DNA of 64,000 nt from Acidobacteriota bacterium (GCA_965205505.1 CBDBHB010000008.1:800001-864000), one strand, 5' to 3'. Numbered from the stretch's first letter, positions 1,567 through 18,828 are shown. Notes: a model not told the origin generated them from the sequence alone. Numbers and translations: made by a program.

Positions 1567-1629
1567 CAGGACACAACAAAGCTGCGCACCAGCCGGAGCC
1601 GGACGGCTCCTTCCGGTACACGGGCAACG

Positions 1630-2334
1630 TTACTCACCTAGTGGCCTGCGGAACTTCAGCGCGAAACGGTCGATTGTCCAGCGGCTGCCCCGGAAGCTCT
1701 GGTCGAAGTCGTCGTCAGGATTGGCGTACATCTCCGAGCGCTCTACCAGCTCGAACCCGGCCGCGGTCAGAACGTCGACCACATGCTGCTCGTTGATACG
1801 GTGGGTGCTGTCGTCGAAGCCTTCCTTCGGTGTTCGCGCATCGACAACGCCGAAGATCCCGCCCGGCTTGAGCGCGGCGAGATACGACGCATAGACCGGA
1901 CCGGTGTCGCCACGGTTCTCGATGTCGTGGATGTTCCGAACCGTGATCATCACGTCCACGCTCCCCGCCATTACGTCGGCGAAGTCCGTGAACACCTCCA
2001 CGTTTGACAGGCCAGCGGCCTCGACGCGCTCCGCAGTGCTGCCGCGACGGTCGGGACCAGCCAGTACCTGCCCGTGCTCCACTATCAGCGACAGCACATG
2101 GGTGTTGTAGCCACCTCCTGGCATCAGATCGACGACCGTCATGTCGGGCTCGACGCCAAAGAACTCGTAGAGCTCCAGAGGCTTGCTGCCGGAATCACGC
2201 TCGCGGTCTGCGTCGCTTCGCAGCGGGTCATCGAGAGCGCTCTGGCCTTGCGCCAGCCCGAGCGTCGCAGCGACGGCAAGTGCCACTACAGCGACCGTCG
2301 GCGAATGAAACTGTATACGGCTCTTCCAGAACAT
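1630..2334 (-). CDS. Exported class I SAM-dependent methyltransferase-like protein
   Basis: Signal peptide, RSDADRERD..KP, VVDLMPGGGY, LKPGG motifs. Confidence 0.85.
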   Translation of the reverse strand: MFWKSRIQFHSPTVAVVALAVAATLGLAQGQSALDDPLRSDADRERDSGSKPLELYEFFGVEPDMTVVDLMPGGGYNTHVLSLIVEHGQVLAGPDRRGSTAERVEAAGLSNVEVFTDFADVMAGSVDVMITVRNIHDIENRGDTGPVYASYLAALKPGGIFGVVDARTPKEGFDDSTHRINEQHVVDVLTAAGFELVERSEMYANPDDDFDQSFRGSRWTIDRFALKFRRPLGE

Positions 2335-2518
2335 TGCATCTGCTCCACTACGATGGGGATCGATCGAACGAGCCTATCTATCCCACACATGACATACAAC
2401 GCCAAGCGAGACCATGTGGCGGGCGACGGCGCATCGTTCACGGCGTGGCGCTGAGGCGGGCATCCAGACGCCGGAGGCGGCCGGCATCGCGCGCTCATCC
2501 AGCACGGTGGGTTTGCGC

Positions 2519-4687: not shown

Positions 4688-4915
4688 TCCGTACTCCCCG
4701 CAAATCGACATTGGGTGGTCGGCTTCCGATCGTTCCGCGAACTTGTGACGGCATCAGGCCAGGCGGATCTCCTCCTACTCCTCCAGGCTTAACGGCCAGT
4801 CCTTCTTGACTGGGATTTCCCGAATGACCTTTGTCGAGTCACGTTCTTGGGTTTTTGTCGGTGCCAGCAGGCCAGGATTCACACACATGTCCACAGTCTT
4901 GTCGAGAGGTCCTCG

Positions 4916-4968
4916 TCTCGCGTGGTGAGAGCCGATCTATTCCGCTAGGCTGAGCAGCCTTTGCGGAG
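4916..4968. repeat. Repeat A copy 1 (structured intergenic repeat)
   Basis: 53 bp with one mismatch to 9997-10049. Confidence 0.95.
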
Positions 4969-5028
4969 GTAGCAACATGGACATCATGCCGATGGCTGCG
5001 ATGGGACGTTCCCTTTGTTGTTAGTGCG

Positions 5029-5532
5029 TTGAGTCGAATCCTAGCAACCGTAACGTGCTGCTTCGCGGCAATCTGCGGCGCCCCAGCCGAAGAGTTCGAC
5101 CCTGTACGCATCGACCGCTTCGAGCACGAGATTAGGCAGTGGTGTCCTGACGGCGAGAATGTAGATATCGTCGACCAACTGTACTTTTTCGCCTGGTGCG
5201 ACGACGGATGGCCAGCCGACCTTTTCACTATCTACCTGAGGAACGACACCCTCAGCGACTTCCACGGATCGATCGCGCTGGAGTACTACGACGAGGAGGG
5301 CTACCGCGTCGACGGAGATACTCTCTCGTCCGTCATCAATAGTCATGACGATCCGAGGTTCATGTCCGGATTTCCGTGGGAGTGGGTAGAGGTAGTGGTG
5401 CCGGCACGCGAAAGAAACATCATTCAGATAATGACAATCACTGACGAAGAGACCGGAGAGACCGCGGACGAGTACATGGCGCGCAAGGGCTACGCATCCT
5501 GGGGCCTCCGGTTGAGATCGGACGAACTATGA
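5029..5532 (+). CDS. Hypothetical secreted acidic protein
   Basis: 167 aa ORF with a signal-like N-terminus; its stop overlaps the ATG of repeat B. Confidence 0.6.
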   Translation: MSRILATVTCCFAAICGAPAEEFDPVRIDRFEHEIRQWCPDGENVDIVDQLYFFAWCDDGWPADLFTIYLRNDTLSDFHGSIALEYYDEEGYRVDGDTLSSVINSHDDPRFMSGFPWEWVEVVVPARERNIIQIMTITDEETGETADEYMARKGYASWGLRLRSDEL

Positions 5533-5560
5533 CCCCGACCACCTACCGAGCCCTCTGCCC
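5529..5560 (+). repeat. Repeat B copy 1 (MTPTTY start module)
   Basis: atgaccccgaccacctaccgagccctctgccc; related copies at 10197, 14081 and 15179. Confidence 0.85.
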
Positions 5561-5730
5561 GGGAGCCACGTGACCGACGACGAAGCAGGCCAGAAGCCCG
5601 AGCGCCTTCTGAACACGAACGACCATGGCTCCAGTTCTACTCGCGGAGGTCGTGCATCTGGGCGCTCGCCGCCCCATTGGCGTCGGTGTGTGGCTATCAA
5701 CGAGCGACGCAATCTACGATATTTAGTCTT

Positions 5731-5838
5731 TGACTATCTATTAAGAGATTGTGCTATCTATTAAGATCTTGTACTATCTATCTATAGTTTATAATATATG
5801 TTTCGCGATTTTTAGATAGTCAGATAATCTCTTAATAG
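5731..5838 (+). promoter_or_regulatory. AT-rich promoter region with phased direct and inverted repeats
   Basis: CTATCTA at 5734, 5754 and 5774; TATAAT at 5790; reverse-complement copies at 5813-5822 and 5826-5838. Confidence 0.65.
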
Positions 5839-5844
5839 GATCTA

Positions 5845-6954
5845 ATGAGCCAAGCTATCTCTCATGCAGTCCTGATCGTCGATGACGATGCAGCTATCTG
5901 CAAGATCGTGAGCCGGACGCTCGAGGCGAACGGCTACCGCTGCGTGGTTGCCGACTCCGCCGAAGGCGCGCTCGAGTTGTTGGATCACGACGGGTTCTCG
6001 CTCGTGATCTGTGACGTCCTCATGCCGGGCTTGTCGGGGCTGGAGTTCCTGGAGCGGATTCGCTACCGCTTCCGCGAGGCGCTTCCCGTGATCATGATGA
6101 CGGGGATGGCCGACAAAAAGACCGTCGACGAGATCATCGAGAGGGGCGCGTACAACTATCTGCACAAGCCTCTGGACCTGCACGCCCTCGCGGTCAACGT
6201 GAAGCTTGCCCTCAAGCAGCGGCAGTTCAGCTTGCAGGCCGTGCGCTCCCAGAGTGCCCTCGCCGAGAAAGTTCAGGTGGCGCAGGAGGAGATCGGCTGG
6301 CGGCTGCTGCGGGCGGCGGAGTGGCGCGACGAGGCGACGGGCGCGCACGTTCAACGCGTGGGATTGGGCTCGCAGATGATGGCGCAGAAGCTCGGATGGG
6401 AGCCCCGCGCCGTCTCGGACATGAAGCTCGCGGCTGCCATGCACGACATCGGCAAGATCGGGGTTCCAGACCGGATCCTGCTGAAGCCGGGGCGGCTGAC
6501 GCGAGAGGAGTTCGAGGTCGTCAAGAGCCACACCGAGATCGGGCACAGTATTCTCGGCGGTGCCAGCTCCTCGCTGCTGATGCTAGCTGCCGAGATTGCC
6601 CTGTCGCACCATGAGAAGTGGGACGGCTCGGGGTATCCGAGGGGACTGGTGGGCGAGGAGATTCCGGAGTCCGGCCGGATCGTCGCGATCATCGATGTTT
6701 ACGACGCCCTCATTTCCGACCGTTCCTACCGCAAGGCGTTCGCTGAGGAGAAGGCCATCGAGAGTATGAGCGGATACTCAGGACAGTACTTCGACCCGTC
6801 GCTATTCGGCGTGTTTCTGGGGATCCTGCCGGAGTTTCGGGCACACAGGGCCAACGGCCGGCTGTTTTTGACGTCTCCGAGCCTAGCGCGCCCCGAGCCG
6901 AGCCCACCGCCCGAGGAACACGATGTGGCCGCAGGGCTGGGCCGGGTCGCCTGA
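5845..6954 (+). CDS. Response regulator with HD-GYP phosphodiesterase domain (RpfG-like)
   Basis: REC domain (LIVDDD, DVLMPG), HDIGKIG, HHEKWDGSGYP. Confidence 0.93.
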   Translation: MSQAISHAVLIVDDDAAICKIVSRTLEANGYRCVVADSAEGALELLDHDGFSLVICDVLMPGLSGLEFLERIRYRFREALPVIMMTGMADKKTVDEIIERGAYNYLHKPLDLHALAVNVKLALKQRQFSLQAVRSQSALAEKVQVAQEEIGWRLLRAAEWRDEATGAHVQRVGLGSQMMAQKLGWEPRAVSDMKLAAAMHDIGKIGVPDRILLKPGRLTREEFEVVKSHTEIGHSILGGASSSLLMLAAEIALSHHEKWDGSGYPRGLVGEEIPESGRIVAIIDVYDALISDRSYRKAFAEEKAIESMSGYSGQYFDPSLFGVFLGILPEFRAHRANGRLFLTSPSLARPEPSPPPEEHDVAAGLGRVA

Positions 6955-7047
6955 ACCCTGCGGTTGGGTGATCGGGATCGGCAGAAAAGACTGATCGTTT
7001 TCAGCCGAAGGGCGCGATCGGAATCAGCCGCGACATACGCAGGGCTG

Positions 7048-9647
7048 TCACGCTGCCTCGAGCGCCTGCCTGACGGTCTGGGCCAGCTTCTCAGGCGTGA
7101 AAGGCTTCTCGAGAAGGGGCACATCGAGATTCAGGGCGCCGTATCCGCTGATGGCCCGCTCGGAGTACCCAGTCATCAACACGACTTTCAATCTAGGCAT
7201 CGCTTGCACCATCTCCTGGTACATCGCGATGCCATCCTGGCCCGGCATGACGATGTCGGTCACGAGAAGGTCCAACTCGGGATGAACGGCCTGTAATTCG
7301 TGCGCCTCCGCCGGGCTGGAGGCCACATGTACCGAATACCCCTTTTCGATCAACACTCGCTCCGCGACGTTGCGCACTATCTCGTCATCCTCGACGAGCA
7401 GGACCGTCTCAGATCCGGCCGGCGCCAATCCTTCTTCGGGATCAACATTCGCGTTGACTGCTTGGTCGGCGCGCGGCAGGTAGATCGTGAAGGTAGAGCC
7501 TTTGCCGGGGGCAGATGTGACCGTGATGTTTCCCCCATGCTGTTTGACTATGCCGTAAGCCGTCGACAGCCCAAGCCCCGTCCCTTCGCCAACTGCCTTG
7601 GTGGTGAAGAACGGATCGAAGATTCGTTCCTTTACATGGCGGTCCATCCCGCAACCTGTGTCGGTGACCTTGATTATGGTGTAATGGTCGGAACTCAGCT
7701 CGCAGGCAACGGACGTTCCTTCGTCGAGGGCCACGCTCTCCGTCTCGATCCGCAGCTTTCCGCCGCTCGGCATGGCATCGCGGGCATTGACAACTAGGTT
7801 CAACAGCACCTGCTCGAGTTGGCCACAGTCAGCTAGAACGGTTCCAACATCTCCGCTTACAGTGATTTCCAGTTCGATGTTTCGGGGATCACTCGCCGCA
7901 GCAGGCTCGTGAGTTCTTCGATCACGACGCCCACGCGCACCGGAACCGGCTGCATGACTTGTTGGCGAGTAAACGCCAGAAGTTGCCGCGTCAGCGCCGC
8001 AGCCCGGTCAGCACCCGCACTGGCCTTGCGAAGATCTTGGGCGATCGTACTGTCTTCCGGGAGATCGGAAATCGCGAATTGTACAAAGCCAGTGATGCCG
8101 GTCAGCAGATTGTTGAAGTCATGAGCGACTCCGGCCGCGAGCTGCCCCACGGCTTCCATTTTCTGGGACTGGCGGTAGCGTGCTTCCATCCGCTTGCGAT
8201 CGGTGATGTCGCGGAATATCCCGTGGTACGCGAAAACTCGGCCGTCTGCGTCGTTCAACATCGTCGCCGTCTCCAAGCAGTCGAGTTCAGCTCCATCTTT
8301 CGTGCGCAGCTTGATCTCGAACTCCCTGACGGATCCTCGTTCCGCAATCGCATCGAGGAACCGGGTGCGTCTGAGCGGGTCGACGTACAGGTCGGATCCG
8401 GTCATCAGCATGATCTCGTCGCGCCGGTAGCCGGTCATCTCGAGCATGGCATCGTTGAGGTGGGCGAACTCGTCGCTGTCGTTGGTGACGTAGATCGCGT
8501 CCCGGCACTGGTCGAAGAGAGTCCGGTATCTCCGGTCGCTTCTCCCTTGCGCGACCTGGGCGTGCCGGCGCTCGGTCTCGAGCAGTTTCTGTTGAACTTG
8601 CGCCAAGGCGCTGAGGATGATCAGGAACACAACAACGCACGCCGCGCGCAGCGGCTCGAAAGAGACATCCAGAAAGCCCGCCAGGTAGACACTGAGGTGA
8701 ACGGCGGGCAAGGCGGTTGCGTAAAGCACCAAGGGGGCCTTGAACTGAGGTTGCTGAGGCGACGGGCTCAGCTCACCGCCTCGCACATGGTCTTGCCCAT
8801 TCCCCGGCAGCGCGTATCGGCTTATCCGTGCCGCCAGGACTATCGGCACGTAGGCGGCAAGACCGATCGGCACGTCCAACCTCAGGTCGATAAACCCCGC
8901 TGACGCGAGAAGCTGTACGAGATCGATCCCGGACCACATGCCGCAATAGGCTGCCAGCAGGCCATAAAGCAGCCTCCAGCGTGGCCTCCCACAGACGTTG
9001 CGAAGATGGAGAAGACTCGCCAGCAGTAGGATATCGAAGATCGTGTACATCATGGACGGCGATACCCAGGTGTCATACTCGTGGGCGTTCTGCGCGCTGG
9101 GAATGATGACGAAGTACATGAACAGGCCCAACGAGAAACTCAGGGTGCCGAGGATTTCGACCCGTTGACGAGAGGGGGCCGCACTCAACCGCGCCGGCAG
9201 GTGCGGGCTCCTGGAGATCGCCAGGAAGAACGCGGCGTAGAAGACCATCAGCAGACAGTCGGCAGCGATATCCCTGTGTATCGGCGATACGTCGAACAGG
9301 AGCAGTGGCACGAGTACGTAGATGATCTCGACCGCGCACCAGCAGCCGAAAGCCACGCCGAGCAACCTCCAGAACTGTCGCTCCCGCCGATGAGCGATCT
9401 TCCCCGACCGATAGACCAAGGCCACGACGCACAGGAGGCTCAGGCCAATATCTGCGTAATAGTCTGAGAAGTTCGCGAGCTGATCGCTGCCGACGATCGG
9501 CGTGAAGAACGGCACGGCGAGCAGGGCAAACACGACGACGGAGATTCGGATCCCCCAGTCGGCAACGAGCATGGCGCGCAGCCCGCGAGGCATGGTGCTC
9601 AGCCGACCTCCTTGCTCAGACGTCGGGCTTCCTTGCGTGGTTGGCAC
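7048..9647 (-). CDS. Membrane-bound PAS hybrid sensor histidine kinase with a 1-nt frameshift near 7881
   Basis: Multi-TM N-terminus, PAS, GVAHDFNNLL, then NLVVNARDAM, GTGLGL and REC in the next frame; adding one A to gaaac restores PENIELEI...QLEQVLLNL. Confidence 0.9.
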
Positions 9648-9689
9648 TGAATTCGCCTGCCAGTTGGGAATTCGCCATAGCTTGAAGTC

Positions 9690-9790
9690 ACACAGTATTG
9701 TTAATACATACTATAGACTCAATATAGATTGCTATACTTGTTATTACATATTAATAATTATCAAAAGTTACTTATGATCACTTTCAATCG
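9690..9790. promoter_or_regulatory. AT-rich upstream region of the histidine kinase
   Basis: Abrupt AT-rich tract directly upstream of the minus-strand kinase. Confidence 0.45.
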
Positions 9791-9972
9791 AGATCGACTA
9801 CTCCATGGGCGGTGGCATCATCCCCATCGCCTTGACCGCTGGGAGCTCACCGGCAACGACGATGAGATCCGCCAGCTGAGAGCAGTGATGTCCGCGTGCT
9901 GCCAGATACAAGCGAAGATCTTCTTCGCGGTGCTCCAACCATCCCGGGTGTGCCCCGTTGCGAAACCGCTGA

Positions 9973-10049
9973 CCCCCTCGCAAATCGCCCGGCTGCTCTC
10001 ACGTGGTGAGAGCCGATCTATTCCGCTAGGCTGAGCAGCCTTTGCGGAG
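9973..10049. repeat. Repeat A copy 2 (longest copy, 77 bp)
   Basis: ccccctcgcaaatcgcccggctgctctcacgtggtgagagccgatctattccgctaggctgagcagcctttgcggag. Confidence 0.95.
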
Positions 10050-10196
10050 ATCCGCCCCTTCCCGTTTGGTACCATCGTTCTAGCCCTCGTAGGGGTTAGA
10101 GCTCGCCGCGGTTTACGTCCCATGGCGCCCGCGGCGGGCTCGTCTATTTATGGGGAACCCGTGACCGGCGATCTGTACACCCGAGATTGAGCGACC

Positions 10197-10562
10197 ATGA
10201 CCCCGACCACCTACCAGATCCTCTACCCCGAGCGCCGTGCAGCCCAGTACATCGAGCAGCTAGTCAGGGCGAAGATGGACGAGACCGGCCTATCCCAGGC
10301 GTCACTGGCGCGCTCCTCTGGGATGGAGAACCCGCACCTCACGATGTACCAGAAAGGAGTCACCCACCCAGGCAAGACCAACCGTGCGCGGCTCGCCCGC
10401 CACTTCGGCGCCGACCTGGAGCTCCTCGAGGAGCTGATCACCGACGACAGGCTCGTGCGCTGGATGGCCAAGCATGGTAAATCGATACAGGAGACGGCGG
10501 CTTCGGTGTCGAGGTTGCGGAGGCTCCGGCGCGTCCCCGCGGGAAAGCGGAAGGTCGGGTAG
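10197..10562 (+). CDS. XRE/Cro-type HTH transcriptional regulator; begins with repeat B
   Basis: GLSQASLARSSGMENPHLTMYQKGVTHP helix-turn-helix pattern. Confidence 0.75.
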   Translation: MTPTTYQILYPERRAAQYIEQLVRAKMDETGLSQASLARSSGMENPHLTMYQKGVTHPGKTNRARLARHFGADLELLEELITDDRLVRWMAKHGKSIQETAASVSRLRRLRRVPAGKRKVG

Positions 10563-10566
10563 CGGG

Positions 10567-10790
10567 ATGCTGCCTGAAGGCGTCGACTGGGTCGCGACCG
10601 CGGCGTTCTGGAAGGAGATCGTGGTTGCCGGCGCCGCAGTCGCCGCTGCCTGCATCGCATACCTTGGGCTCGCGGCGTGGAAGAAACAGCTGCATGGCCG
10701 CAGTGGCTACGAGCTAGCCAGGCGGTTGCTGCGCGCTGTCTATTCGGTTCGCGACAGGATCGTCAGAGTACGAACCCCTCTAGAAGGAGA
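10567..10790 (+). pseudogene. Truncated single-TM hypothetical protein typical of mobile DNA
   Basis: TM segment, then GLAAWKKQLHGRSGYELARRLLRAVY..R; coding character is lost at the RBS of the next gene. Confidence 0.5.
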
Positions 10791-10795
10791 TCCCG

Positions 10796-11197
10796 ATGAA
10801 AGCATTCATCACGTTCAATCGCGGCATCATGCAAATGCCCCCCCACTGGCGACTGTGGCTCGCGCTGTTGATAACCGCCAACCTGATCGTGCCGCTCTTC
10901 TTTATCGGTCGCGGGGAGGCCCAGGTTGTCATCGCGGCGCTTCTGGGAAGCATGATCCTCATGACGATCTTGACCGGGCTCACCGGCTTCACCCGCCTTT
11001 TGGGCCTCGGCCACATCTTTTGGATCCCGCTCCTCTACTTCCTTTGGACGCGGCTCGATCAGATTCCGGCCGACAGTGCGTTCGGCGTCTGGATTCGGGT
11101 TCTGATGACGCTGAACGCAGTGTCCTTGATCATCGACGCCATCGATGTCACTCGCTACATCGCTGGCGACCGAGAGGAGACGGTCGCAGGACTGTGA
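10796..11197 (+). CDS. Hypothetical four-TM membrane protein
   Basis: AGGAG RBS, hydrophobic segments, RLLGLGHIFWIP. Confidence 0.8.
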   Translation: MKAFITFNRGIMQMPPHWRLWLALLITANLIVPLFFIGRGEAQVVIAALLGSMILMTILTGLTGFTRLLGLGHIFWIPLLYFLWTRLDQIPADSAFGVWIRVLMTLNAVSLIIDAIDVTRYIAGDREETVAGL

Positions 11198-11225
11198 CCG
11201 ATCCAGTGGCCTTGATTACCGGCAC

Positions 11226-11606
11226 ATGATGAAGAAGGGATGCCTGATCGTCTTGATCCTCTTCGTGATTGCCCTCGCCGCCTTGGTCCTCTTTGTGAGT
11301 TCGGCGGCAGACCGCGGCGATCGCACCGCTGCCGGAGGCCCAGGCGAGCCTTTCGAAGCGATCACTATCATCCGTGCCAACGAGGCATCTGCCCTCGACA
11401 TTGAGGTCAACGCTTGGGAGGCGCCCTTCGGCGTCGGTCCGCTCGGACGCGGCCGCGTGCGCTTTCAATTGGTGCAGGGGACTCCAGTGCAGGTAACGCG
11501 ACGCGCCTGGCACGAGGAAGAAGAGCGCTACTACTACTTAGTCCAGCATGATGGGAGTTCCGGGTGGATACCGGCGCCGTTCGTGCAACTCCAGCAGACC
11601 CCATGA
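11226..11606 (+). CDS. Membrane-anchored protein with SH3-like C-terminus
   Basis: MKKGCLI TM anchor; GTPVQV...YYLV...GWIPAPFV. Confidence 0.65.
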   Translation: MMKKGCLIVLILFVIALAALVLFVSSAADRGDRTAAGGPGEPFEAITIIRANEASALDIEVNAWEAPFGVGPLGRGRVRFQLVQGTPVQVTRRAWHEEEERYYYLVQHDGSSGWIPAPFVQLQQTP

Positions 11607-11968
11607 GAGGCTGCCGCGGCACCTTCGTTCGCCCCCTCGCCTACCCGCTCCGCCAGTTCGGCTCCTACCTCGGCGAGCTCATCGACGATCACCCCGCCTC
11701 CATGCGCACAATCGCCACCGAGCTCGGCATCACGCAGGGCACCATGAGCGGCTACCGCTGCGGTCAGTATCTCCCTCCGGATCGCGCTTCGCTAGATGCT
11801 ATCGCAGAGATCCTGGCGCCGACGAAGACCAAGGCGAAGGTCGTGCGACGAGAGCTGCTGCGGCGCTGGATCCCGGACCTGATGGATGCGCATCTGCGGG
11901 GGGCTGATGTCACGCCGGCGGAGGGGCAGCGGGCTATCGAGGATACGGCGGCGGCGCGGCGAGGGTAG
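11603..11968 (+). CDS. Second XRE-type HTH protein; begins with repeat C
   Basis: SMRTIATELGITQGTMSGYRCGQYLP; ATGA overlap with the upstream stop. Confidence 0.7.
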   Translation: MRGCRGTFVRPLAYPLRQFGSYLGELIDDHPASMRTIATELGITQGTMSGYRCGQYLPPDRASLDAIAEILAPTKTKAKVVRRELLRRWIPDLMDAHLRGADVTPAEGQRAIEDTAAARRG

Positions 11969-12151
11969 ATCGGCCAACAGCGCGCCAGCCCCCAGCCCCG
12001 GGCCGCTCCCCTTTACGTCCAATGGGACCAAGGCCAGCGCGCTCTTGGCCGCTCCATCTGAATAGACGTCCGGACCTTGTCGAAGGTTCCGTCACCAACG
12101 GACGACGTGTGATGCAGCTGACAGGCGCGCCGCGGGCTGGAACCTATCTGC

Positions 12152-12265
12152 GCGCCCACTTGTCGGTGCTGACGTCACGCCAGAGGAGGCTCGGCGGGCG
12201 ATTCGCGATACGGCGGTGGCGCGGCGGCGTGGGTAGAGGAACAGGCAACAGCGCGTCGGAGCCCC
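12152..12265 (+). repeat. Diverged duplicate of the 3' end and downstream flank of the HTH gene at 11603
   Basis: gctgacgtcacgcc...gatacggcgg..gcgcggcg..gggtaga..caacagcgcg matches ~11888-11995. Confidence 0.75.
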
Positions 12266-12537
12266 AGGAACATCGCAGCGACGTCGAAGTCCGCTAGCCA
12301 CTACCTAGAGGTGTGCTGGGGAGTCTAAAATGTCGGGTTACCCCTTGGCGCGGGACGAGAGTAGCCGACACCGTCGCTGCCGGGCAGCCACGGTCGCGTC
12401 GATGCCTGGCCTGAGATCACAGCGGCGAAGCGCGTCCCGCGCTGGGGGGCTTCGCTTGTTCGTGGGGTCTTTGGACGACTCTCACGGGCGACGGGATCCG
12501 CCGGCTGTTAATCAACCATCCAAGGGAGGTGCTTCGG

Positions 12538-13143
12538 ATGAACGCAGACAGCATCAAGAAGGGCATCTACGGCGGCCTGGCCGGAGGCGTGGTGTTCGGA
12601 GCCATGATGGGAATGATGGGGATGCTACCGATGATCGGCAGCATGGTGGGGTCTCCATCGGCTTTCGCAGGCTTTCTCCTCCACATGGTCAACAGTGCCA
12701 TCATCGGAGCCGCGTTTGGCATCGTCTTGGGCTCGATGGTGAGCGGGATGGGAAACGGCTTGGGGTATGGACTCGGCTACGGCGTGATCTGGTGGTTGTT
12801 GGGCCCGCTCACGCTCATGCCCTTGTTCATGGGAATGGGCATGGGTGTCAACTGGAACCTAGAGGCCGCCGGAAACATGATGCCCAGCCTCATGGGTCAT
12901 CTGGTCTACGGCGCAATCCTGGGCGCTGTCTACGCCTGGATGGGCACAGGACAACGTGCCGATGGGAGTTCTGATTCCGCTGACTTCGAGCCCCTGGATA
13001 GCGGGGGTCCGATTCCGTTGGAGAACGAAGATCAAGCAGCGCCGGAGGAGGCCGCCTCGAGGGACGGCGAGGGCACGGAAACTGGCAATGGGGCCGAGCG
13101 ACCGAGCGGGCCTAGAACGGCGACGAATAACATCCTGGACTAG
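12538..13143 (+). CDS. Met/Gly-rich four-TM membrane protein with acidic tail
   Basis: GGAGG RBS; TM helices with LHMVNS and LMGHLVYG. Confidence 0.85.
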   Translation: MNADSIKKGIYGGLAGGVVFGAMMGMMGMLPMIGSMVGSPSAFAGFLLHMVNSAIIGAAFGIVLGSMVSGMGNGLGYGLGYGVIWWLLGPLTLMPLFMGMGMGVNWNLEAAGNMMPSLMGHLVYGAILGAVYAWMGTGQRADGSSDSADFEPLDSGGPIPLENEDQAAPEEAASRDGEGTETGNGAERPSGPRTATNNILD

Positions 13144-13152
13144 GTAGCCAGC

Positions 13153-13200
13153 GAGGCTTCGGCGGCTACGGCGCGTCCCCGCGGGAAAACGGAGGGTGGG
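13153..13200 (+). repeat. Duplicate of the 3' end of the HTH gene at 10197
   Basis: ggcgcgtccccgcgggaaa.cgga.ggt matches 10511-10559. Confidence 0.8.
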
Positions 13201-13256
13201 ATGAGACTAGACCGGCTCCATTATCAAAGAGTGGAACCGGCGCCCTAACTGCTACG

Positions 13257-13544
13257 ATGTCGTCAGCCCCCCAGCAGCCCGACGGAGTGCCAGTGCCCCG
13301 CGCCCGTTTGAACCGCGTTCGTGCTGAGCAACGAGCCTTTGATTCGCAGATTGATGATCTGCTCGACAAGCACGCCGGCGAGTTCGTAGTCTTCCACGAC
13401 GAGCAGCCTGTAGCCTTCTATCCGACCCATGCGGAAGCCTACGCTGACGCGCTCAAAGTTTATGGCGCTGAGGGTGTCTTCCTCGTATCTCAGGTGAAGA
13501 AGCGCTCCCCGCGCTTGTCACAGCGGCTGCGCGCCCACACGTAG
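13257..13544 (+). CDS. DUF5678-like small protein
   Basis: LLDKHAGEFVVFHDEQPV...EAYADA...YG...FLVSQV pattern. Confidence 0.6.
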   Translation: MSSAPQQPDGVPVPRARLNRVRAEQRAFDSQIDDLLDKHAGEFVVFHDEQPVAFYPTHAEAYADALKVYGAEGVFLVSQVKKRSPRLSQRLRAHT

Positions 13545-13615
13545 GCGCGCGGCGGACGCGGGTGGCGGTTCGGCAGATCCGCATAATGCTCGATGCTCGA
13601 TCTGATCTGCCTCCC

Positions 13616-13644
13616 GACCCCCCCCCTCGCAAATCGCCCGGCTG
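13616..13644. repeat. Repeat A copy 3 (left part only)
   Basis: ccccctcgcaaatcgcccggctg is identical to 9973-9995. Confidence 0.85.
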
Positions 13645-13751
13645 TGAGCTTTGCTAGTGACATAGGAAATTTGTTCCGCTTTGGCCACGGCTGCACGCAA
13701 GCTCAAACGTGCCGCGAGTCGCGCCCTGCGCGCCAAAGGTAGGGCCCAACA

Positions 13752-14084
13752 ATGTACAACCCCGGCTTCGTCGATGGCCTGCACTACTCAACCTACATCC
13801 TGGAGTATCGCCGTCTGAAGCGAGAGGGCGAGCTTGATCGAGCAGAAAAGCTCCTGATCCGAATCGTCGGCGCAACGGAGGACGAGGCCAGGGCCAACGG
13901 CTGGGATGTATCGCCCACTTACTACGAGCAGCTGGCCATCATCTACCGGGAAAAGAAGCAGCCGTCCGACGAGCTCGCGATACTCGAGCGGTACGAGCAA
14001 CAAACACGAGCCCAACACACTCCTTCCGCGAGACTCGCCAAGCGCCTAGCAGGGCTGCGCGCCAAGATCCGTAAGAGCGAGTGA
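13752..14084 (+). CDS. TPR-like helical hypothetical protein, paralogue 1
   Basis: YYEQLAIIYREKKQPSDELAILERYE; paralogue at 15208. Confidence 0.8.
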   Translation: MYNPGFVDGLHYSTYILEYRRLKREGELDRAEKLLIRIVGATEDEARANGWDVSPTYYEQLAIIYREKKQPSDELAILERYEQQTRAQHTPSARLAKRLAGLRAKIRKSE

Positions 14085-14113
14085 CCCCGACCACCAACCG
14101 AGTCCTCTGCCCC
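14081..14113 (+). repeat. Repeat B copy 3
   Basis: gtgaccccgaccaccaaccgagtcctctgcccc, overlapping the upstream stop. Confidence 0.85.
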
Positions 14114-14357
14114 GGAGAGGAGGACAGGTGAGCGAACGCCGTGTGTGACGGTCTGAAGAATTGCCCCGACAGCTTTGTTCGCATGCTGGGCGTGGGCATC
14201 TATTTGCTCGAACGCCAGTGGGCTCGCGAGCCAAGAGCGGGCGGGGCCCGTGCCGCCGTGGAAACAAACCGCACGATACGGTATGTATATAGAATCGCTC
14301 TGTAGCGGTTCTTGGACTTCCAGTTCTGCCGCGAGGCCGCAACTACGGAGGTTCCCC

Positions 14358-15098
14358 ATGAAGTCCTGCCTCCTGCTCGTCATCGTCGCCTTCGCCCTCT
14401 CCGGCTGCGTGCCCGCAACCGACTCATCGGAATCCGAGCCGGACGTCATCGTCGACCCCGCTGGGACCATCGGCATCACGTACCCGAACCTCGACGTAGC
14501 GACGCCCGAGGTTGTGTTCGACAACGAGTACTTGCTCGTCCAGCAGCTGCGTAGCCAGCCCGGAGTCTGGAGCGGCGAGCACGGTCACGCCGGCAACCAG
14601 TTCGGCGTTTCCTTTGGTGCGGCAACGACGCAGCTAATCGTGGGCGATGAGCAGACGACGAACACGGCCGAAGCTGGTGACTTCTTTTGGGTCGACGCCG
14701 TGGAGTCACACAATCACCGGCAAATCAGCGAGGAACCACGCTACCTCTTCGTTGCGACCATCAAGCGATCCCCGAGCTACGCAATAGGTGTCGACCCAGC
14801 CACGGTCACCTTCGAGGGATATCCTAATGATCCGGGCGAGCTCGTACTCGATAACGACATGGCGATCGTCCGGCGCTTCGACATCGAGCCCGAGTACTGG
14901 GCCGGGTCGCACAGTCACGCCGGCAACGAGCTCACGATCATGATCACGGATGCCACCGCGAAAGTCGTTGTCGGCGAAGAAGAGAGCGACGTGAGCTTCG
15001 AGACGCGCGATATCATCTGGACGGACGCTGGCGTCCTGCACGACCACGGCAACACGGGCGACTCGACGACGAGCTTCTACGTGATCAAGCTACGGTAG
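14358..15098 (+). CDS. Lipoprotein with two cupin-like domains
   Basis: GGAGG RBS, LSGC lipobox; two repeats of V.DN...PxxW.G.H.HAGN...W.DA...H.H. Confidence 0.8.
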   Translation: MKSCLLLVIVAFALSGCVPATDSSESEPDVIVDPAGTIGITYPNLDVATPEVVFDNEYLLVQQLRSQPGVWSGEHGHAGNQFGVSFGAATTQLIVGDEQTTNTAEAGDFFWVDAVESHNHRQISEEPRYLFVATIKRSPSYAIGVDPATVTFEGYPNDPGELVLDNDMAIVRRFDIEPEYWAGSHSHAGNELTIMITDATAKVVVGEEESDVSFETRDIIWTDAGVLHDHGNTGDSTTSFYVIKLR

Positions 15099-15150
15099 CG
15101 TCATCTCCGGTGTTCTCGACGATCGGCGACAGCTCGACCGTAGCCACGAT

Positions 15151-15205
15151 GCCGCCGCGGCACCCGTTCGCCCCTGATATGACCCCCACGACCTACCAAG
15201 TCCTC
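15151..15205 (+). repeat. Adjacent fragments of repeat C and repeat B (copy 4)
   Basis: gccgcggcacccgttcgcccc (compare 11613-11635) followed by atgacccccacgacctaccaagtcctc. Confidence 0.7.
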
Positions 15206-15207
15206 CA

Positions 15208-15555
15208 GTGAGAGGCCGCCGAGGCGCGAGCCCACCGGGCTTCGTCGACGGTCGGCACTACTCGGTCTACGTGGTGGAGGTTCGTCGCCTCAAGCGGGTG
15301 GGCGACCTCGATGGTGCGAAGGAGCTTCTCCTGCGCCTAGTGGACGCCACAGAGGCTGAGGCATCCGCCCGAGGCGAAGGCTGGGTTGCTCCGTGGTACT
15401 ACGAGCAGCTTGCGATCATCTACCGGAAGAAGAAGCAGCCAGCCGACGAGCTCGCGATCCTCGAGCGGTACGAACGACAAGCGGGGGCCCTTGGGATGAT
15501 TTCAGAGAGGCTGGCCAAGCGCCTGGCCGGCCTGCGAGCCAAGGCGGACCAATGA
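15208..15555 (+). CDS. TPR-like helical hypothetical protein, paralogue 2
   Basis: GFVDGRHYS...YYEQLAIIYRKKKQPADELAILERYE. Confidence 0.8.
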   Translation: MRGRRGASPPGFVDGRHYSVYVVEVRRLKRVGDLDGAKELLLRLVDATEAEASARGEGWVAPWYYEQLAIIYRKKKQPADELAILERYERQAGALGMISERLAKRLAGLRAKADQ

Positions 15556-15764
15556 GAGGCCGCCGCAGCACCCTAAAGATGGACCTTATGTCAGGACAGG
15601 TCAGCTATCGCTGCAAGTGCAGGCGTATCGTCCGGGTTCACGCCTCGGACCTAGCGGCCGGCTTGGTCGACTACTGCGGCTGCGGTCGGCTGCGAATCGA
15701 CCTCAGTGAGTCTGAGGTCAACGGTTACCGACAGATGGCCGGTCTCCCGAAGCTCGAGGAGTAG
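15552..15764 (+). CDS. Small Cys-containing phage-like protein
   Basis: YRCKC...CGC motifs; ATGA coupling to the upstream gene. Confidence 0.5.
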   Translation: MRGRRSTLKMDLMSGQVSYRCKCRRIVRVHASDLAAGLVDYCGCGRLRIDLSESEVNGYRQMAGLPKLEE

Positions 15765-15767
15765 GCT

Positions 15768-15830
15768 GTGAAGACGCTCGAGATCATCGACGGCGACACC
15801 CTCGTCGTTCGAGACGAGGACGGGGCCGAG
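15768..15830 (+). pseudogene. Thermonuclease (SNase)-like N-terminal fragment
   Basis: Manual translation VKTLEIIDGDTLVVRDEDG matches the SNase IDGDT motif; the frame then closes. Confidence 0.45.
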
Positions 15831-15954
15831 CTCGGCCGGGGGGAGGCGGGGGGCTAGGAGTCTCAAGCTGCGAGGTGATCATTGGGATTTTTCAAACACG
15901 TACAGAGCGTAGCGCCCTACGGCCCCAATTTGGAACGCAAGGTAGAGCGGAGGC

Positions 15955-16224
15955 ATGATGCCGTTCACCAAACAGCAATATGAAGCCGCCATCGAGAAAA
16001 TGGAAGTTACCATCGACCGCCTACGCGACGAGGCGCGGGAGGCAGTGAGCAAACTAGCCGACGCCTTGATGGCCCGCGACGTGGATATCGGCCTGCTGGA
16101 AGCATGCACCGAGAAGGCAGCGACGCTGGTGCGGGCGGTGCGGGCAAGCGAGGACACCCACGCCAGGCTCGAACATGCTATCGACCGCGGCCTCGCCGCC
16201 AGACAAGAGAGCGGTCCTAAGTGA
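15955..16224 (+). CDS. Hypothetical coiled-coil protein
   Basis: GGAGG RBS; 89 aa helical ORF. Confidence 0.55.
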   Translation: MMPFTKQQYEAAIEKMEVTIDRLRDEAREAVSKLADALMARDVDIGLLEACTEKAATLVRAVRASEDTHARLEHAIDRGLAARQESGPK

Positions 16225-16404
16225 CCGATCCGAAGAGCGAGCAACTGTGGACGGCCCAGGACGCAGGGAAATATCCGCGGCCGCCGCCTCCTCCTCTTCC
16301 TCCTCCACCTCCGCCGGCGCCGCCCGATCGGCGATGGCCCGCGACTACTCGAGCACTACCAGGAATAGTGGGACAAGCTACGGGTAGAACTTAGTTCCCC
16401 GACA

Positions 16405-16494
16405 TCAGGTCGAGCGGCGCGTCGCCTCGGCCTCGAGCTTCAGCAGAGCCTCGTCTTCGGTCAACCGCATCCGCACGTCGACCGTGGCTTCCAT
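16405..16494 (-). pseudogene. Short ribbon-helix-helix-like ORF remnant
   Basis: AAGGAG RBS next to repeat A; MEATVDVRMRLTEDEALLKLEAEATRRST. Confidence 0.3.
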
Positions 16495-16518
16495 CCGGCC
16501 GACTTCTCCTTGCGCGTC

Positions 16519-16586
16519 CCCCCTCGCAAACCGGCTGCGCGCTCTCGCGTGGTGAGAGCCGATCTATTCCGCTAGGCTGAGCAGCC
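16519..16586. repeat. Repeat A copy 4
   Basis: ccccctcgcaaa..ccggctg..gctctcgcgtggtgagagccgatctattccgctaggctgagcagcc. Confidence 0.95.
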
Positions 16587-16678
16587 CACTGCCGTGCTTA
16601 GACACTCCCCGGATCGGGCGGTCGCAGCGCAGGGACTCAGCACGTCAGACTCGATCCTCAAAGAAGGGAGACATCAGC

Positions 16679-17182
16679 ATGAAGAGAGCCGCCCTGATCG
16701 CGCTCTTGAGCGCCTTTTCCAGCACCTCGCCGGCTCCAGAGGCAGGAACGCTCGCAGACGGCTTGGTCGGAAGCTGGCGTCTGATATCGGCCGAGGGGCA
16801 CGGCACCGACGGTAGCGTAACTTATCAATATGGGCCGGAGCCGCTCGGGCGCGTAATGTTCGACGATGGCGGCCGCATGTCCATCCACCTCGTGAACCCG
16901 AGCCGACGGCCCTTTGCATCAGCCGACTTCCTGCGCCCCACGCCTGAGGAACGCACGGAAGCCTCCGACGGTTATTTCGGCTACTTCGGCAGCTACACGG
17001 TGGATGAGAGTGCAGAGGTTGTGACGTTTCACGTGGAAGGCGCGGCGTACCCGAACTACATCGGTACAGCTCAGCGGCGGCTCTTCGTACTGGAGGGGGA
17101 CCGGCTGACTCTTCGCACGCCACCGGAACGCGCCGGGGGTGCGGACATCACCTATGTTGTGACTTGGGAACGGGAAGGCTGA
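16679..17182 (+). CDS. Secreted lipocalin-like domain protein
   Basis: LVGSWRLIS, G.MS, YFGYFGSYTVDE, GTAQRR, LTL, WER motifs. Confidence 0.85.
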   Translation: MKRAALIALLSAFSSTSPAPEAGTLADGLVGSWRLISAEGHGTDGSVTYQYGPEPLGRVMFDDGGRMSIHLVNPSRRPFASADFLRPTPEERTEASDGYFGYFGSYTVDESAEVVTFHVEGAAYPNYIGTAQRRLFVLEGDRLTLRTPPERAGGADITYVVTWEREG

Positions 17183-17299
17183 CTCGACAGCGACTGCCGG
17201 CGGTGAGCCGCGGGAGCTTCTTCGCGTGCCGCGGCCCAAGGGAGACGTCGAGTTCGACCGATCACGACCGCTTGACACTCGGGAGCGCAGTCGAAAAGC

Positions 17300-17405
17300 G
17301 GGGACCGCCTGACTCGTTCGCACTCCACCGAAACGCGCCGGCGGTGCGAACATCACCTATGCTGTGACTTGGGAGCGGGAAGGCTGACTCGGCAACGACC
17401 GCCTG
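17300..17405 (+). repeat. Diverged duplicate of the lipocalin gene 3' end
   Basis: Matches ~17096-17200 including the TGA and downstream bases. Confidence 0.85.
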
Positions 17406-17432
17406 GCAATCTCTTCGGTAGACATTGGGAGG

Positions 17433-18821
17433 TTGGGACTGGGATCATCCCGTCCGAGAACCAGCCGACGGCGAAGAGAGGACGTCATCAGAGCCAGCGC
17501 AGCAACTACCGTCCTGTTGGTGGCGATTGCCGCCGTCGCGACCGGAGCCGTTTCGACCAACAGCCACGCTCTGACGGCAGCAATCCGTGAACCGCTCGAG
17601 CGCGGACTGCATCACCAGCTGGTCGCTGACCGGTCGGCATTCGAGGCGGTGCTCGCCAATCCCGCCGTCCGCGACATGCTCACCAGCGTACGTGAGGGTG
17701 AGGTGGCGACCATCGACGACCAGGTCGCCCTTTGTGAGATCCCGGCACCACCGTTCAACGAACAAGAGCGCGCAACAGACTTCGCTCGTCGCCTGCGCGA
17801 GGCCGGTATCCAGAGTGTTCGGGCCGATGCAGTCGGCAACGTGATCGGCGAATGGGTGGGCTCGGAACCGGGTCCCCTGGTCGTTCTGTCCGCGCACCTC
17901 GACACTGTGTTTCCGCCGGGCACGGACGTCGCCGTGACCCGCGACGACCATTTGCTGAAGGGACCCGGCATCGTCGACGACTGTCGCGGGCTGGCGGTAG
18001 TGCTCGCGGTCGCAAGAGCATGGGCGGGAAGCGGGCTGCGGCCGCGCGGACGGCTCATATTCGTCGCCACGGTCGGTGAGGAAGGTGCCGGAAACCTGCG
18101 GGGCGTGCGTCATCTTTTCGAGGTCGAGCTGCCGGACCAGATCGATGCGTTCATCTCCGTCGACGGCGCCGGCAGCGCCGTCACCCACGGGGCGGTTGGA
18201 AGCCATCGCTACAAGGTCACCTACCGCGGGCCGGGTGGGCACAGCTTCGGGGCTTTCGGCATGCCCAACCCGATGCACGCACTGGGGCGGGCAATTGCCA
18301 AGATCGCCGACTTCCAGGTTCCAACAGAGCCCAAGGTCACGTTCAGCGTCGGGATCCTGGAAGGTGGGACTTCGGTCAACTCGATCCCGTTCTCGGCCGC
18401 CATGTCCGTCGACATGCGCTCCCTCGACGTCAACGCGCTCGAGGAGATCGACTCTCAGTTCCGCGCCGCGCTGCAGCAGGCCCTCGACGAAGAGAACACT
18501 CGCTGGGACAGCGACGTCGACCTCTCCTACGACATCGAGGTCATCGGCATCCGCCCCGCTGGGCTGCAGCCGGAGAGCGCCCCGATCGTGTGGGCGGCCC
18601 TTGCGACGGCGCGGGCAGTGGGCATCGATGCGCGGCTCAACAGCGCCAGCACCGACTCCAACATCCCGATCAGCCTGGGAATTCCGGCAGTAACCATCGA
18701 TGGCGGAGGCCACGGGACCGGTGCCCACTCGCCATCCGTGGAGACCTTCGATACGACCGACAGCCATAGGGGGTCGCAATGGGCCCTCTTGCTGACGCTG
18801 ACACTTGCCGGTGTCGAGTAG
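17433..18821 (+). CDS. M20/M25/M40 family metallopeptidase (start uncertain)
   Basis: SAHLDTVF, GPGIVDD, GEEG, GGHS, STDSN, GAHS. Confidence 0.9.
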   Translation: MGLGSSRPRTSRRRREDVIRASAATTVLLVAIAAVATGAVSTNSHALTAAIREPLERGLHHQLVADRSAFEAVLANPAVRDMLTSVREGEVATIDDQVALCEIPAPPFNEQERATDFARRLREAGIQSVRADAVGNVIGEWVGSEPGPLVVLSAHLDTVFPPGTDVAVTRDDHLLKGPGIVDDCRGLAVVLAVARAWAGSGLRPRGRLIFVATVGEEGAGNLRGVRHLFEVELPDQIDAFISVDGAGSAVTHGAVGSHRYKVTYRGPGGHSFGAFGMPNPMHALGRAIAKIADFQVPTEPKVTFSVGILEGGTSVNSIPFSAAMSVDMRSLDVNALEEIDSQFRAALQQALDEENTRWDSDVDLSYDIEVIGIRPAGLQPESAPIVWAALATARAVGIDARLNSASTDSNIPISLGIPAVTIDGGGHGTGAHSPSVETFDTTDSHRGSQWALLLTLTLAGVE

Positions 18822-18828
18822 AGGCACA

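Follow-up and report, generated by a model that had tools for sequence, protein, structure and literature searches.

A probable mosaic island of phage-type control genes and accessory genes under a reused promoter-like module in an Acidobacteriota genome

The stretch of DNA analysed here, referred to as the window, comprises 64,000 nucleotides (G000:C8:800001-864000) of the genome of an Acidobacteriota bacterium (G000; 5.98 Mb, nine contigs, 96% complete, 63% GC). Positions 4916-17405 of the window hold an array of small genes and gene remnants, in which unrelated genes are separated by recurring short modules named A and B. With a probability of roughly 0.6, this array is a mosaic island of decayed control genes of temperate-phage-like integrative elements and of moron-like cargo genes, which stand under a reused promoter/operator module and have been shuffled by recombination. 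An earlier reading of the sequence alone had offered two explanations, one of which, a stack of eroded phage or satellite control regions, comes close to the reading favoured here: the backbone genes are of a lysogeny type, a sister array is followed by helicase, excisionase and integrase genes, a terminase fragment is present at another, and the insertions are strain-specific. Its further claim that the array is the best candidate for an undescribed system in this DNA is an overstatement.

Genes were called from third-position GC and then compared with Pfam; 17 open reading frames (ORFs) were accepted as genes between 4916 and 17405, of which 14 are located on the plus strand according to our reading of the ORF and Pfam calls. 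The comparison genomes included three members of the same genus (G001-G003), a congener (G004) and a member of another acidobacterial family (G256). In addition, contigs of four public runs (X1, X4, X5 and X6, the last three from three other studies) were aligned to positions 1500-19000.

Structure and distribution of the modules

Repeat A consists of a nearly invariant core of about 45-50 nt, which is often preceded by a 23-nt piece, A1. Among 22 distinct aligned copies, the core block TCTC-N-CGTGGTGAGAGCCGATCTATTCCGCTAGGCTGAGCAGCC is almost invariant; the core is laid out as an imperfect 17-bp palindrome (7+3+7), followed by CCGATCTATTCCGCTAGGCTGAGCAGCC, and TAGGCT comes 20 nt after the palindrome. 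The left neighbour of the core is A1 in some of these copies and one of three or more further partners in the others (at least four in all), and to the right, divergence starts at several points and leads into several different partners. Copies of A are 98% identical over 53 nt (E 2e-17) and 100% identical over 44 nt (E 4e-14) as judged by BLAST. All module copies of the array lie on the plus strand. Copy 1 of A (4892-4968, with the invariant core at 4916-4959) lacks A1 and has an upstream partner in common with one of the G004 arrays. Copy 2 (9973-10215, with the repeat proper at 9973-10064) is composed of A1 (9973-9995), the core, about 113 nt that are not part of the compact unit and include a terminator-like hairpin (10127-10139), and the start of B, and copy 3 (16519-16586) consists of a variant A1 and the core. 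At 13622-13751, A1 alone (13622-13644) is followed by an alternative module, A', which is 89% identical to C9:2057935-2058063 (locus f), where it precedes a terminase fragment.

Repeat B (TGACCCCGACCACCTACC, with the start stub ATGACCCCGACCACCTACC) is found at 5530, 10198, 14082 and 15180. It represents the opening codons (MTPTTY...) of the XRE gene at 10197 and is reduced to stubs of 10-16 codons elsewhere. Copy 1 of B (5529-5623) has a conserved tail of about 100 nt, made up of the short ORF MTPTTYRALCPGAT, closed by a stop codon, and a hairpin after it; tails of this kind come after TPR-like genes elsewhere. Copy 3 (14081-14117) overlaps the stop codon of a TPR-like gene in the letters GTGA, and copy 4 (15179-15211) encodes a 10-codon ORF (MTPTTYQVLQ and a stop), which ends on the start codon of another TPR-like gene. 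The compact unit of A1, core, leader and B has a length of about 150 nt. The repeats A and B and three duplicated gene ends, to which the sequence-only reading had drawn attention, lie where it had placed them and are far beyond chance. The order of A, gene and B that it had described is found at 4916-5565 and 13622-14117, A runs into B without a gene at 9973-10215, and the overlaps of stop codons with module starts (ATGA/GTGA) are present at 5529 and 14081. Part of a tRNA-Met gene near a G004 array is, in reverse complement, loosely similar to repeat B; the similarity was judged to be chance, as the adjoining sequence has no tRNA fold.

A search of the G000 genome with a 92-nt A query yielded 19 matches, and the 33-nt core is present in 11 copies with at most five mismatches. 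According to a repeat search of the genome, A, A1 and B form about eight co-oriented clusters when the window is counted as one; the others are located at C8:20.7 kb, C8:39.6 kb (a solo A-B unit, duplicated at C9:3154.6 kb), C8:565 kb, C9:466-471 kb, C9:659-662 kb, C9:2057-2058 kb and C9:2102-2104 kb. The solo unit and its flanks are identical at C8:39594-40736 and C9:3154613-3155755, near contig ends, which reflects either a large duplication or assembly redundancy. A search of 41 related genomes detected A in two of them, G000 (17 matches) and G004 (18 matches, which form arrays as well), and did not find it in G001-G003 of the same genus. In a collection of 185,579 species, the exact core is present in one other species genome only, again G004 (four stretches), and in one metagenome contig. 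The arrays of both genomes are co-oriented with a spacing of 0.4-2 kb. Those of G004 sit at loci other than those of G000, and cassettes common to both are 83-97% identical and differ in order.

In nine of the 11 G000 core copies, a co-oriented start codon follows 31-157 nt after the core, as read from the repeat and ORF calls; the remaining two represent one duplicated locus with a degenerate B, in which ATA replaces ATG. The genes behind the cores are unrelated and encode GST-like, globin-like, lipocalin and XRE proteins, a 61-amino acid membrane protein and a small cysteine-rich ORF. Copies of A are 94-100% identical over 44-92 nt ahead of such unrelated genes, including the gene for a 167-amino acid protein. 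A and B are genome-wide modules that probably behave as a reused promoter and leader, a point that lay beyond the sight of the sequence-only reading.

A strain-specific insertion at a variable site

Comparison of the flanks with G004 and G003 delimits a strain-specific island of about 15 kb (2409-17445). The flanking stretches (1-2408 and 17449-18871) are 89-92% identical to G004, where they lie 1.6 kb apart, and the corresponding distance in G003 is 1.9 kb. In G004, the site is filled by a multicopy repeat of about 280 bp and by a stretch that is homologous to the DNA downstream of the solo A-B unit of G000, and in G003 by a carboxylesterase-like ORF, which was named from recognised motifs. 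Since the flanks are adjacent in both genomes and the fillers differ, the DNA at 2409-17445 was either inserted at a variable site or replaced other DNA there. Identical gene order in relatives, which would have spoken against the sequence-only reading, was not encountered: the island is absent from the homologous site in G004 and G003. The 280-bp repeat has a MITE-like look (miniature inverted-repeat transposable element) and dozens of copies in G000 (e.g., C9:1253741-1254019), which are 88-97% identical. One copy sits at the G004 site homologous to window position 2409 (L009, about 16700-16970), and positions 1-25000 of the window, the part compared, showed none.

Sister arrays are likewise strain-specific insertions. 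Locus d of G000 took the place of a 786-bp gene that is kept by G004, and only the last 30 nt or so of this gene remain. Conversely, G004 contains an array island of 7.2 kb with a hybrid kinase gene, and the homologous site of G000 is empty. An imperfect direct repeat of 18 bp (CTGCAyGTsTACAAGGAy) bounds this island and lies at the beginning of an ORF that resembles a glycosyltransferase gene, judging by just its initial residues. A new gene start is provided by the right end of the island. Judged from these borders, the footprint appears classic for an integrase-mediated insertion. The island of the window itself contains no integrase, att repeats, or replication or structural genes detectable with Pfam and PHROGs, so that it is not an intact prophage or satellite. 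A tRNA/tmRNA scan of the window found none.

Backbone genes of the temperate-phage control type

Three kinds of backbone genes, encoding an XRE repressor, an XRE-like protein with a weak helix-turn-helix (HTH) match and a TPR-like protein of about 110 amino acids, appear to be of the type that controls temperate phages. The XRE-family regulator (10197-10562, plus strand), whose gene starts with repeat B, matches HTH_3 below the Pfam cut-off (E 1.3e-4) and PHROG repressor families; when the backbone and cargo proteins were compared with PHROGs, PADLOC and NCBIfam, it was the only one that matched. The XRE-like gene (11603-11968, plus strand) has copies at loci d, h and e and in three G004 arrays, and its G004 relatives match HTH_31 below the cut-off (E 3e-4). 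The two TPR-like genes (13752-14084 and 15208-15555, both on the plus strand) are paralogues, the products of which have 110-115 amino acids and are 70% identical. The second one is followed by a gene for a 70-amino acid cysteine-rich protein (15552-15764, plus strand), and the same pairing is found at locus c and in the array on contig C13 of G004.

The TPR-like protein belongs to no Pfam, PADLOC or NCBIfam family; however, 262 relatives from several phyla were found at E <=0.001, with identities of 50-70%. Among 301 Acidobacteriota genomes, seven encode the family, and only G000 (five copies) and G004 (11 copies) possess more than one. TPR-like matches were also identified at 10 IMG/VR loci, and 30 of 104 ORFs were scanned around eight of these. 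A gene for an HTH_3-type regulator lies just upstream of the match in six of the eight viral loci, three of which additionally carry an ImmA/IrrE M78 peptidase gene, and an integrase is encoded within about 2 kb in three of the eight. In L034, L035, L036 and L038, the match makes up the C-terminal portion of a larger protein, whose N-terminal domain is HIRAN or RNase_T (DEDDh exonuclease). Across the IMG/VR loci L034-L036, L038 and L043, the TPR-like domain is either fused to HIRAN/DEDDh or encoded beside DUF4062 and SIR2 genes, in lysogeny modules. This uncharacterised family may act in phage defence or in the regulation of defence.

Further traces of integrative elements are found at the sister arrays. 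The array on contig C13 of G004 is followed by genes for a DnaB-like helicase, an HTH_17 protein (excisionase type) and a tyrosine integrase; att repeats around this block were not found. At locus f, A1-A' precedes an ORF of 126 amino acids, whose relatives have 450-530 amino acids (E down to 1.6e-38), and several of them carry precomputed terminase domains (PF03237, PF03354 and PF17289), which identifies the ORF as a fragment of a terminase large subunit. PHROGs and strict Pfam searches did not indicate a terminase fragment at L024:8021-8736 (Terminase_6C, E 0.074), and the homologue search was supportive later. Elsewhere in G000, four integrase matches (C9:332384, C9:917424, C9:1754492 and C8:549409) have the same score of 61.9 bits and the same open frame of 423 amino acids each and are therefore probably copies of one element. 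A match to the N-terminal domain of DnaB lies about 1.5-2 kb from two of them, and the element, which is possibly an active multicopy integrative element, carries no A/B modules.

Exchange of genes among arrays and strains

Comparison across arrays revealed that the cargo order differs among the window, locus d and the arrays of G004. In the window, the XRE-like gene, a membrane-protein gene, the DUF5678 gene, A1-A' and a TPR-like gene follow one another. Locus d has the order TPR-like gene, A1, DUF5678 gene, A-B, YHYH gene, B tail, A, small membrane-protein gene, XRE-like gene, kinase remnant and membrane-protein gene. The small DUF5678-like gene of the window (13257-13544, plus strand; a weak match) is 97% identical to its locus d counterpart at the DNA level in spite of the different order. 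In several arrays, the TPR-like gene is flanked by B on both sides, and the position between A and the B tail, which a TPR-like gene would have, is taken by the gene for the 167-amino acid protein.

The clearest exchange concerns a tract at 12432-13191 (plus strand), which is identical to locus d on C9 at 756 of 760 positions and holds the gene for a 204-amino acid membrane protein (12529-13143, plus strand). Beside the tract, identity falls to 61% (133/219) and 41% (75/181), and its right edge lies in a remnant of the XRE gene 3' end (13152-13200, plus strand), which pairs with 10510-10558 at 86% identity. A tract with 99.5% identity between divergent flanks indicates a recent gene conversion or duplication between arrays. 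In addition, A marks breaks of synteny, as can be seen at the GST locus: two flanking genes that are 34 nt apart in G003 are separated in G000 by an insert of 2.86 kb, which ends in the A core just before the GST gene, and G004 has the same A-GST junction as G000 with another upstream flank.

The contigs of the public runs bear on both strain variation and assembly. Contigs of X1 tile the window without differences, but they end inside copies of A (4939-4945, 10014-10020 and 16557), so that the linkage across A rests on the assembly itself. X5 and X6 hold 1643-6207, which is present in X4 in pieces (2231-4950 and 5208-6207), and all three runs hold most of the region from about 11.6 to 19 kb with few differences. 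Over 6.2-11.4 kb, the depth of X4, X5 and X6 is low, and they include a contig that joins 6207 to 11589. The joint has no shared letters, lies away from A and B and keeps the frame: 121 codons of the receiver domain lead into QQTP and a stop. The data point to a strain-level indel of 5.4 kb that appears to have arisen by illegitimate recombination; contigs of the three other studies lack all of 6207-11589. Roughly 20 runs contain parts of the island. The earlier reading had raised misassembly as a possible objection; no sign of it was seen, and both borders of the island recur in contigs of the three other studies, as do most of the junctions within it (4939-6207, 12449-13158, 13511-13995, 14036-15312, 15453-16572 and 16558-19000). 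Circular junctions, which it had suggested looking for, were not found: the joints 13558->9973 and 15542->5529 represent the paralogous loci d and h rather than circles. Joints with sides of 20-23 letters (e.g., 1770->10214 and 4622->6912) were treated as spurious.

Proposed mechanism and points against it

According to the favoured reading, two kinds of material have come together in the array: decayed control genes (XRE repressor, XRE-like HTH, TPR-like, small DUF5678-like and cysteine-rich proteins) and unrelated accessory genes, mostly for secreted or membrane proteins, which would be set out like the morons of prophages. Most transcription units would open with an optional A1, the core and a short common leader, in several copies extended by the MTPTTY codons of B. 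The A core is predicted to combine operator and promoter, the palindrome being the putative operator and TAGGCT a possible -10 element. It might be bound by an HTH protein encoded in the arrays, so that all 11 core copies of G000 would form one regulon. Dispersed over about eight arrays, the modules would provide portable homology; dispersed copies of such length and identity (45-90 nt, 95-100%) suffice as substrates for homologous exchange. Genes would be relocated, swapped or shortened by RecA-type exchange and gene conversion, probably the main mechanism of shuffling, and in addition by illegitimate joins and deletions. The start stubs (B) and the displaced 3' ends would be traces of these events. 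The islands probably arrived by integrase-mediated insertion and then lost their integrases.

Several observations weigh against this reading. PHROGs yields nothing for the TPR-like, XRE-like and other backbone proteins, and a tblastn search of 50,697 phage records with the XRE-like protein gave no match; a BLASTN search of the same records with the A-B unit was negative as well. With the exception of the terminase fragment, no array of G000 adjoins an integrase or structural phage genes, and the helicase, excisionase and integrase genes on contig C13 of G004 could be a coincidental neighbouring element. Not the whole island need be foreign, since the gene for a protein with ankyrin repeats and a PQQ propeller (3215-4711, minus strand) has relatives elsewhere in the genus: its non-syntenic counterparts in G001-G003 are 66-71% identical, and nothing nearer than 41% identity is present in G004. 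On the left side, the island may therefore consist of relocated core DNA. A scan for the sigma-70 consensus found no promoter-like site in any copy of A, and there is no RNA-type run on record among those holding the region. Furthermore, the A core is about 99% conserved across the two species, compared with 89-92% for the local flanking core DNA, which is stronger than in a typical promoter spacer. This conservation would also fit an RNA element or a recombination end recognised by a protein, and on its left side the core meets several partners at a sharp junction that recurs among copies, as a site-specific process would also make.

Alternative explanations

The unit of A1, core and B could be a small non-autonomous, promoter-bearing MITE of the Correia kind, in which case the arrays would be hot spots of its insertion. 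Compact solo units of about 150 nt do exist (C8:39593-39740 and the metagenome contig L033), A1 and the stretch before B form an imperfect inverted repeat (about 11-13 of 15-16 positions), and the genome is rich in other repeats such as the 280-bp element described above. The inverted repeat, however, is weak and was seen by eye only, and many copies lack A1, the pre-B stretch or both. Neither a target-site duplication nor a clean empty site was seen, and A is located at the end of a 2.86-kb insert at the GST locus instead of forming a 150-nt insertion. A search of G000 for Y1 transposases (PF01797; IS200/IS605, RAYT) gave no match, with a control that was positive in six of 14 reference genomes; a derivation of the repeats from IS200/IS605 or REP elements was ruled out on this basis. 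A MITE origin is unlikely.

An equally slim chance is given to the core being a cis-acting RNA element of the 5' untranslated region, i.e., a regulatory leader or a small RNA target of a regulon. The core is always located upstream of and co-oriented with a start codon, it is extremely conserved, and A folds into a structure with a hairpin (-33.2 kcal/mol, z -2.2). However, no match to Rfam 15 was obtained, neither at the gathering score in the window nor at E <=1 on 9900-10300. Compensatory changes are absent from all 12 proposed pairs of the fold, and where the 5' side varies, pairs are just broken, although this is weak evidence either way given the little variation among the copies. One pair of the hairpin is a standard pair in only six of the 22 aligned copies; for the outer stem, 68-77% of cells show pairing.

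It is improbable that the array belongs to a dedicated cassette system, in which the hairpin-edged A core is the site for a recombinase encoded elsewhere and genes move as discrete cassettes, as in integrons or rAID. A more specific version is similarly doubtful; here, the core would be recognised by a recombination or copy-out machinery, also encoded elsewhere, that links promoter-bearing cassettes in head-to-tail fashion, with the joints at the 5' edge of the core. If this were true, the machinery would represent a promoter-first, attC-less analogue of the integron that is confined to a small acidobacterial clade. The near-invariant core, the recurrent junction exactly at its 5' edge with at least four left partners, and the A1-only copies, which stop at that same point, are in favour of such a system. 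The co-oriented arrays in two genomes and the different orders of shared genes would fit as well, and the genome has 35 tyrosine-recombinase matches (PF00589), IntI included. None of these 35 matches, however, lies inside 4916-17405, and no recombinase was found in or beside any array of G000. The nearest match in the window is an isolated C-terminal fragment of 49 residues (33212-33358, plus strand, E 6.6e-9). In a scan of our own, which combined box motifs with gapped complementarity of the arms, no attC-like site was found in the island or in the 64-kb window at any of the four thresholds between 12 and 18. In the positive control, a chromosomal integron of G256 (L065, G256:C2:358000-377900), the same scan gave 10-94 matches over these thresholds (34 at threshold 16). 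The absence of a recombinase and of attC, which the sequence-only reading had noted, is therefore upheld. The borders of the DUF5678, YHYH and membrane-gene blocks lie at varying distances from A or B, A has right-hand junctions at several positions, the strain indel joins 6207 to 11589 away from both modules, and the sole joint that leads back in the array is explained by the paralogous locus d and needs no circle.

The control integron, with 51% GC, contains at least 28-30 attC sites of about 145 nt (GCCTAAC...GTTAGGC) within 20 kb, together with about 40 small ORFs that are co-oriented, and a gene for a TPR-like protein is one of its cassettes. G000 itself possesses an integron at C8:1206890-1215211 (L067, 3886-12211), with about seven attC-like sites (GCCTAACGG...GTTAGGC) within C8:1206890-1211363. 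Its integrase is the sole IntI of the genome (C8:1214351-1215211; TIGR02249, 350.5 bits vs a cut-off of 265) and is encoded about 400 kb away from the window; the 3' end of the integrase gene faces the cassettes. As the genome has a true integron of a quite different look and the island lacks both attC and an integrase, the array is not an integron. The other explanation of the sequence-only reading, a platform that captures genes with the help of a recombinase in trans, accordingly gains no support, given the missing attC sites, the different integron elsewhere, the heterogeneous cassette borders and the indel joint without a repeat. An assembly artefact, with repeats wrongly joined in a metagenome-assembled genome, is very improbable even though the short-read contigs of the best run end inside copies of A, because contigs of three other studies reproduce the island borders and junctions and the congener G004 has arrays of a like kind.

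Relation to known systems

Highly similar non-coding sequences (>=80% over >=50 nt) upstream of unrelated genes of one genome have been described as putative mobile promoters; the mechanism of their movement is unknown, and most families are simple pairs (Nijveen, Matus-Garcia and van Passel 2012, PMC3575422). The A family shows this degree of similarity ahead of non-paralogous genes, has no Rfam match and, going by its sequence, qualifies as a putative mobile promoter under that definition. In contrast to the described families, A occurs in co-oriented arrays within strain-specific islands, continues into the opening codons of genes (B), has alternative partners on its upstream and downstream sides and is associated with regulators of the phage type. 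Correia, ERIC and REPIN elements, named in the same study (PMC3575422), are miniature repeats that bear promoters. A resembles them as a short dispersed repeat that would be able to supply a promoter to downstream genes, but it is modular rather than of unit length and has neither clear terminal inverted repeats nor a target duplication nor a RAYT/Y1 partner.

Lysogeny regions of prophages and their morons are similar to the array in their repressor-type HTH proteins, the TPR-like family, whose gene is located between those for repressor and integrase in IMG/VR prophages, self-contained accessory genes and strain-specific insertion, and the att-like direct repeat at one sister island and the terminase fragment at another add to the likeness with prophages and integrative elements. 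The island of the window differs from these in the lack of integrase, excisionase, replication and structural genes, in the reuse of a promoter-like module and in the dispersal over about eight arrays. Integrons are comparable with regard to small, unrelated, co-oriented genes, recurring short spacers and strain-variable content. Integron cassettes are mostly promoterless. The array, however, has no adjacent intI and no attC (RYYYAAC...GTTRRRY with complementary arms), and its repeat A is promoter-like and located 5' of the genes. The rAID-1 system of the Bacteroidales (recombinase-associated acquired interbacterial defence) is defined by a conserved tyrosine recombinase that heads the array, and its cargo consists of orphan immunity genes (PMC12247911). 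The array shares with rAID-1 short co-oriented genes with conserved intergenic motifs, and differs from it in the missing tyrosine recombinase, the phylum, the interspersed regulators and the absence of any cargo assigned as an immunity protein. The array is best filed with known kinds of elements, as a mosaic island in which decayed control regions of integrative elements are combined with a promoter module that is used repeatedly.

If the favoured reading holds, the array would be an unusually clear natural case of promoter reuse, in which two soil species of the Acidobacteriota, a phylum with few genetic data, would each carry one module ahead of about a dozen unrelated genes. The module would be tied to phage-derived regulators and would, at the same time, provide portable homology through which accessory genes are reshuffled and synteny is broken. 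It would thus provide a testable example of the mobile promoter phenomenon and of the recycling of decayed integrative elements into regulons. Because G000 and a relative hold textbook integrons, co-oriented arrays of small genes with recurring spacers need tests for attC and integrase before they are labelled integron-like. The TPR-like family, which is widespread across phyla, is worth studying in its own right, as it is found both as an integron cassette in G256 and in prophage fusions with HIRAN or exonuclease domains.

Cargo genes, remnants and neighbouring features

The gene calls and Pfam matches confirm the gene content that the sequence-only reading had described, including the lipocalin, the double cupin, a weak SH3 match, membrane proteins, the two TPR-like paralogues and a signalling pair. 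Immunity-protein families were not indicated among the cargo by Pfam, NCBIfam or PADLOC, and toxin partners were not looked for. All genes and remnants described here are located on the plus strand, except for the kinase. Behind copy 1 of A, a remnant of 15 codons (4977-5024) is left of the gene for the 61-amino acid small membrane protein, which is intact after A at loci d and h. It is followed by the cargo gene for the 167-amino acid protein (5029-5532), which has a signal-peptide-like start and no family match and is unique in the genome. Downstream of the XRE regulator, the cargo consists of a 133-amino acid membrane protein (10796-11197) and a lipoprotein-like protein with a weak SH3_3 match (11226-11606). 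A displaced copy of the 3' end of the XRE-like gene (12165-12226) pairs with 11900-11961 at 79% identity. Between the two TPR-like genes lies the gene for a lipoprotein-like double-cupin protein (14359-15098), with two Cupin_2 stretches in the scanned ORF 14175-15098 and a start that is read from the sequence as the ATG at 14359. The right part of the array encodes an 89-amino acid protein (15955-16224), which is 81% identical to its locus c counterpart, and a Lipocalin_5 protein (16679-17182); a displaced copy of the lipocalin gene 3' end (17317-17403) pairs with 17112-17198 at 90% identity.

The signalling pair consists of a response regulator with an HD domain of the HD-GYP type (5845-6954) and a hybrid histidine kinase on the minus strand (7048-9647). 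The kinase is divided into two ORFs, one with PAS and HisKA domains (7857-9647) and one with HATPase_c and REC domains (7048-7809), and is probably a pseudogene as it is interrupted between 7809 and 7857. The block of both genes is bordered by very AT-rich stretches (5720-5845 and 9650-9790), and an AT-rich tandem repeat of three 20-nt units (CTATCTATTAAGAGATTGTG-like) is located at 5734-5793, ahead of the response regulator gene.

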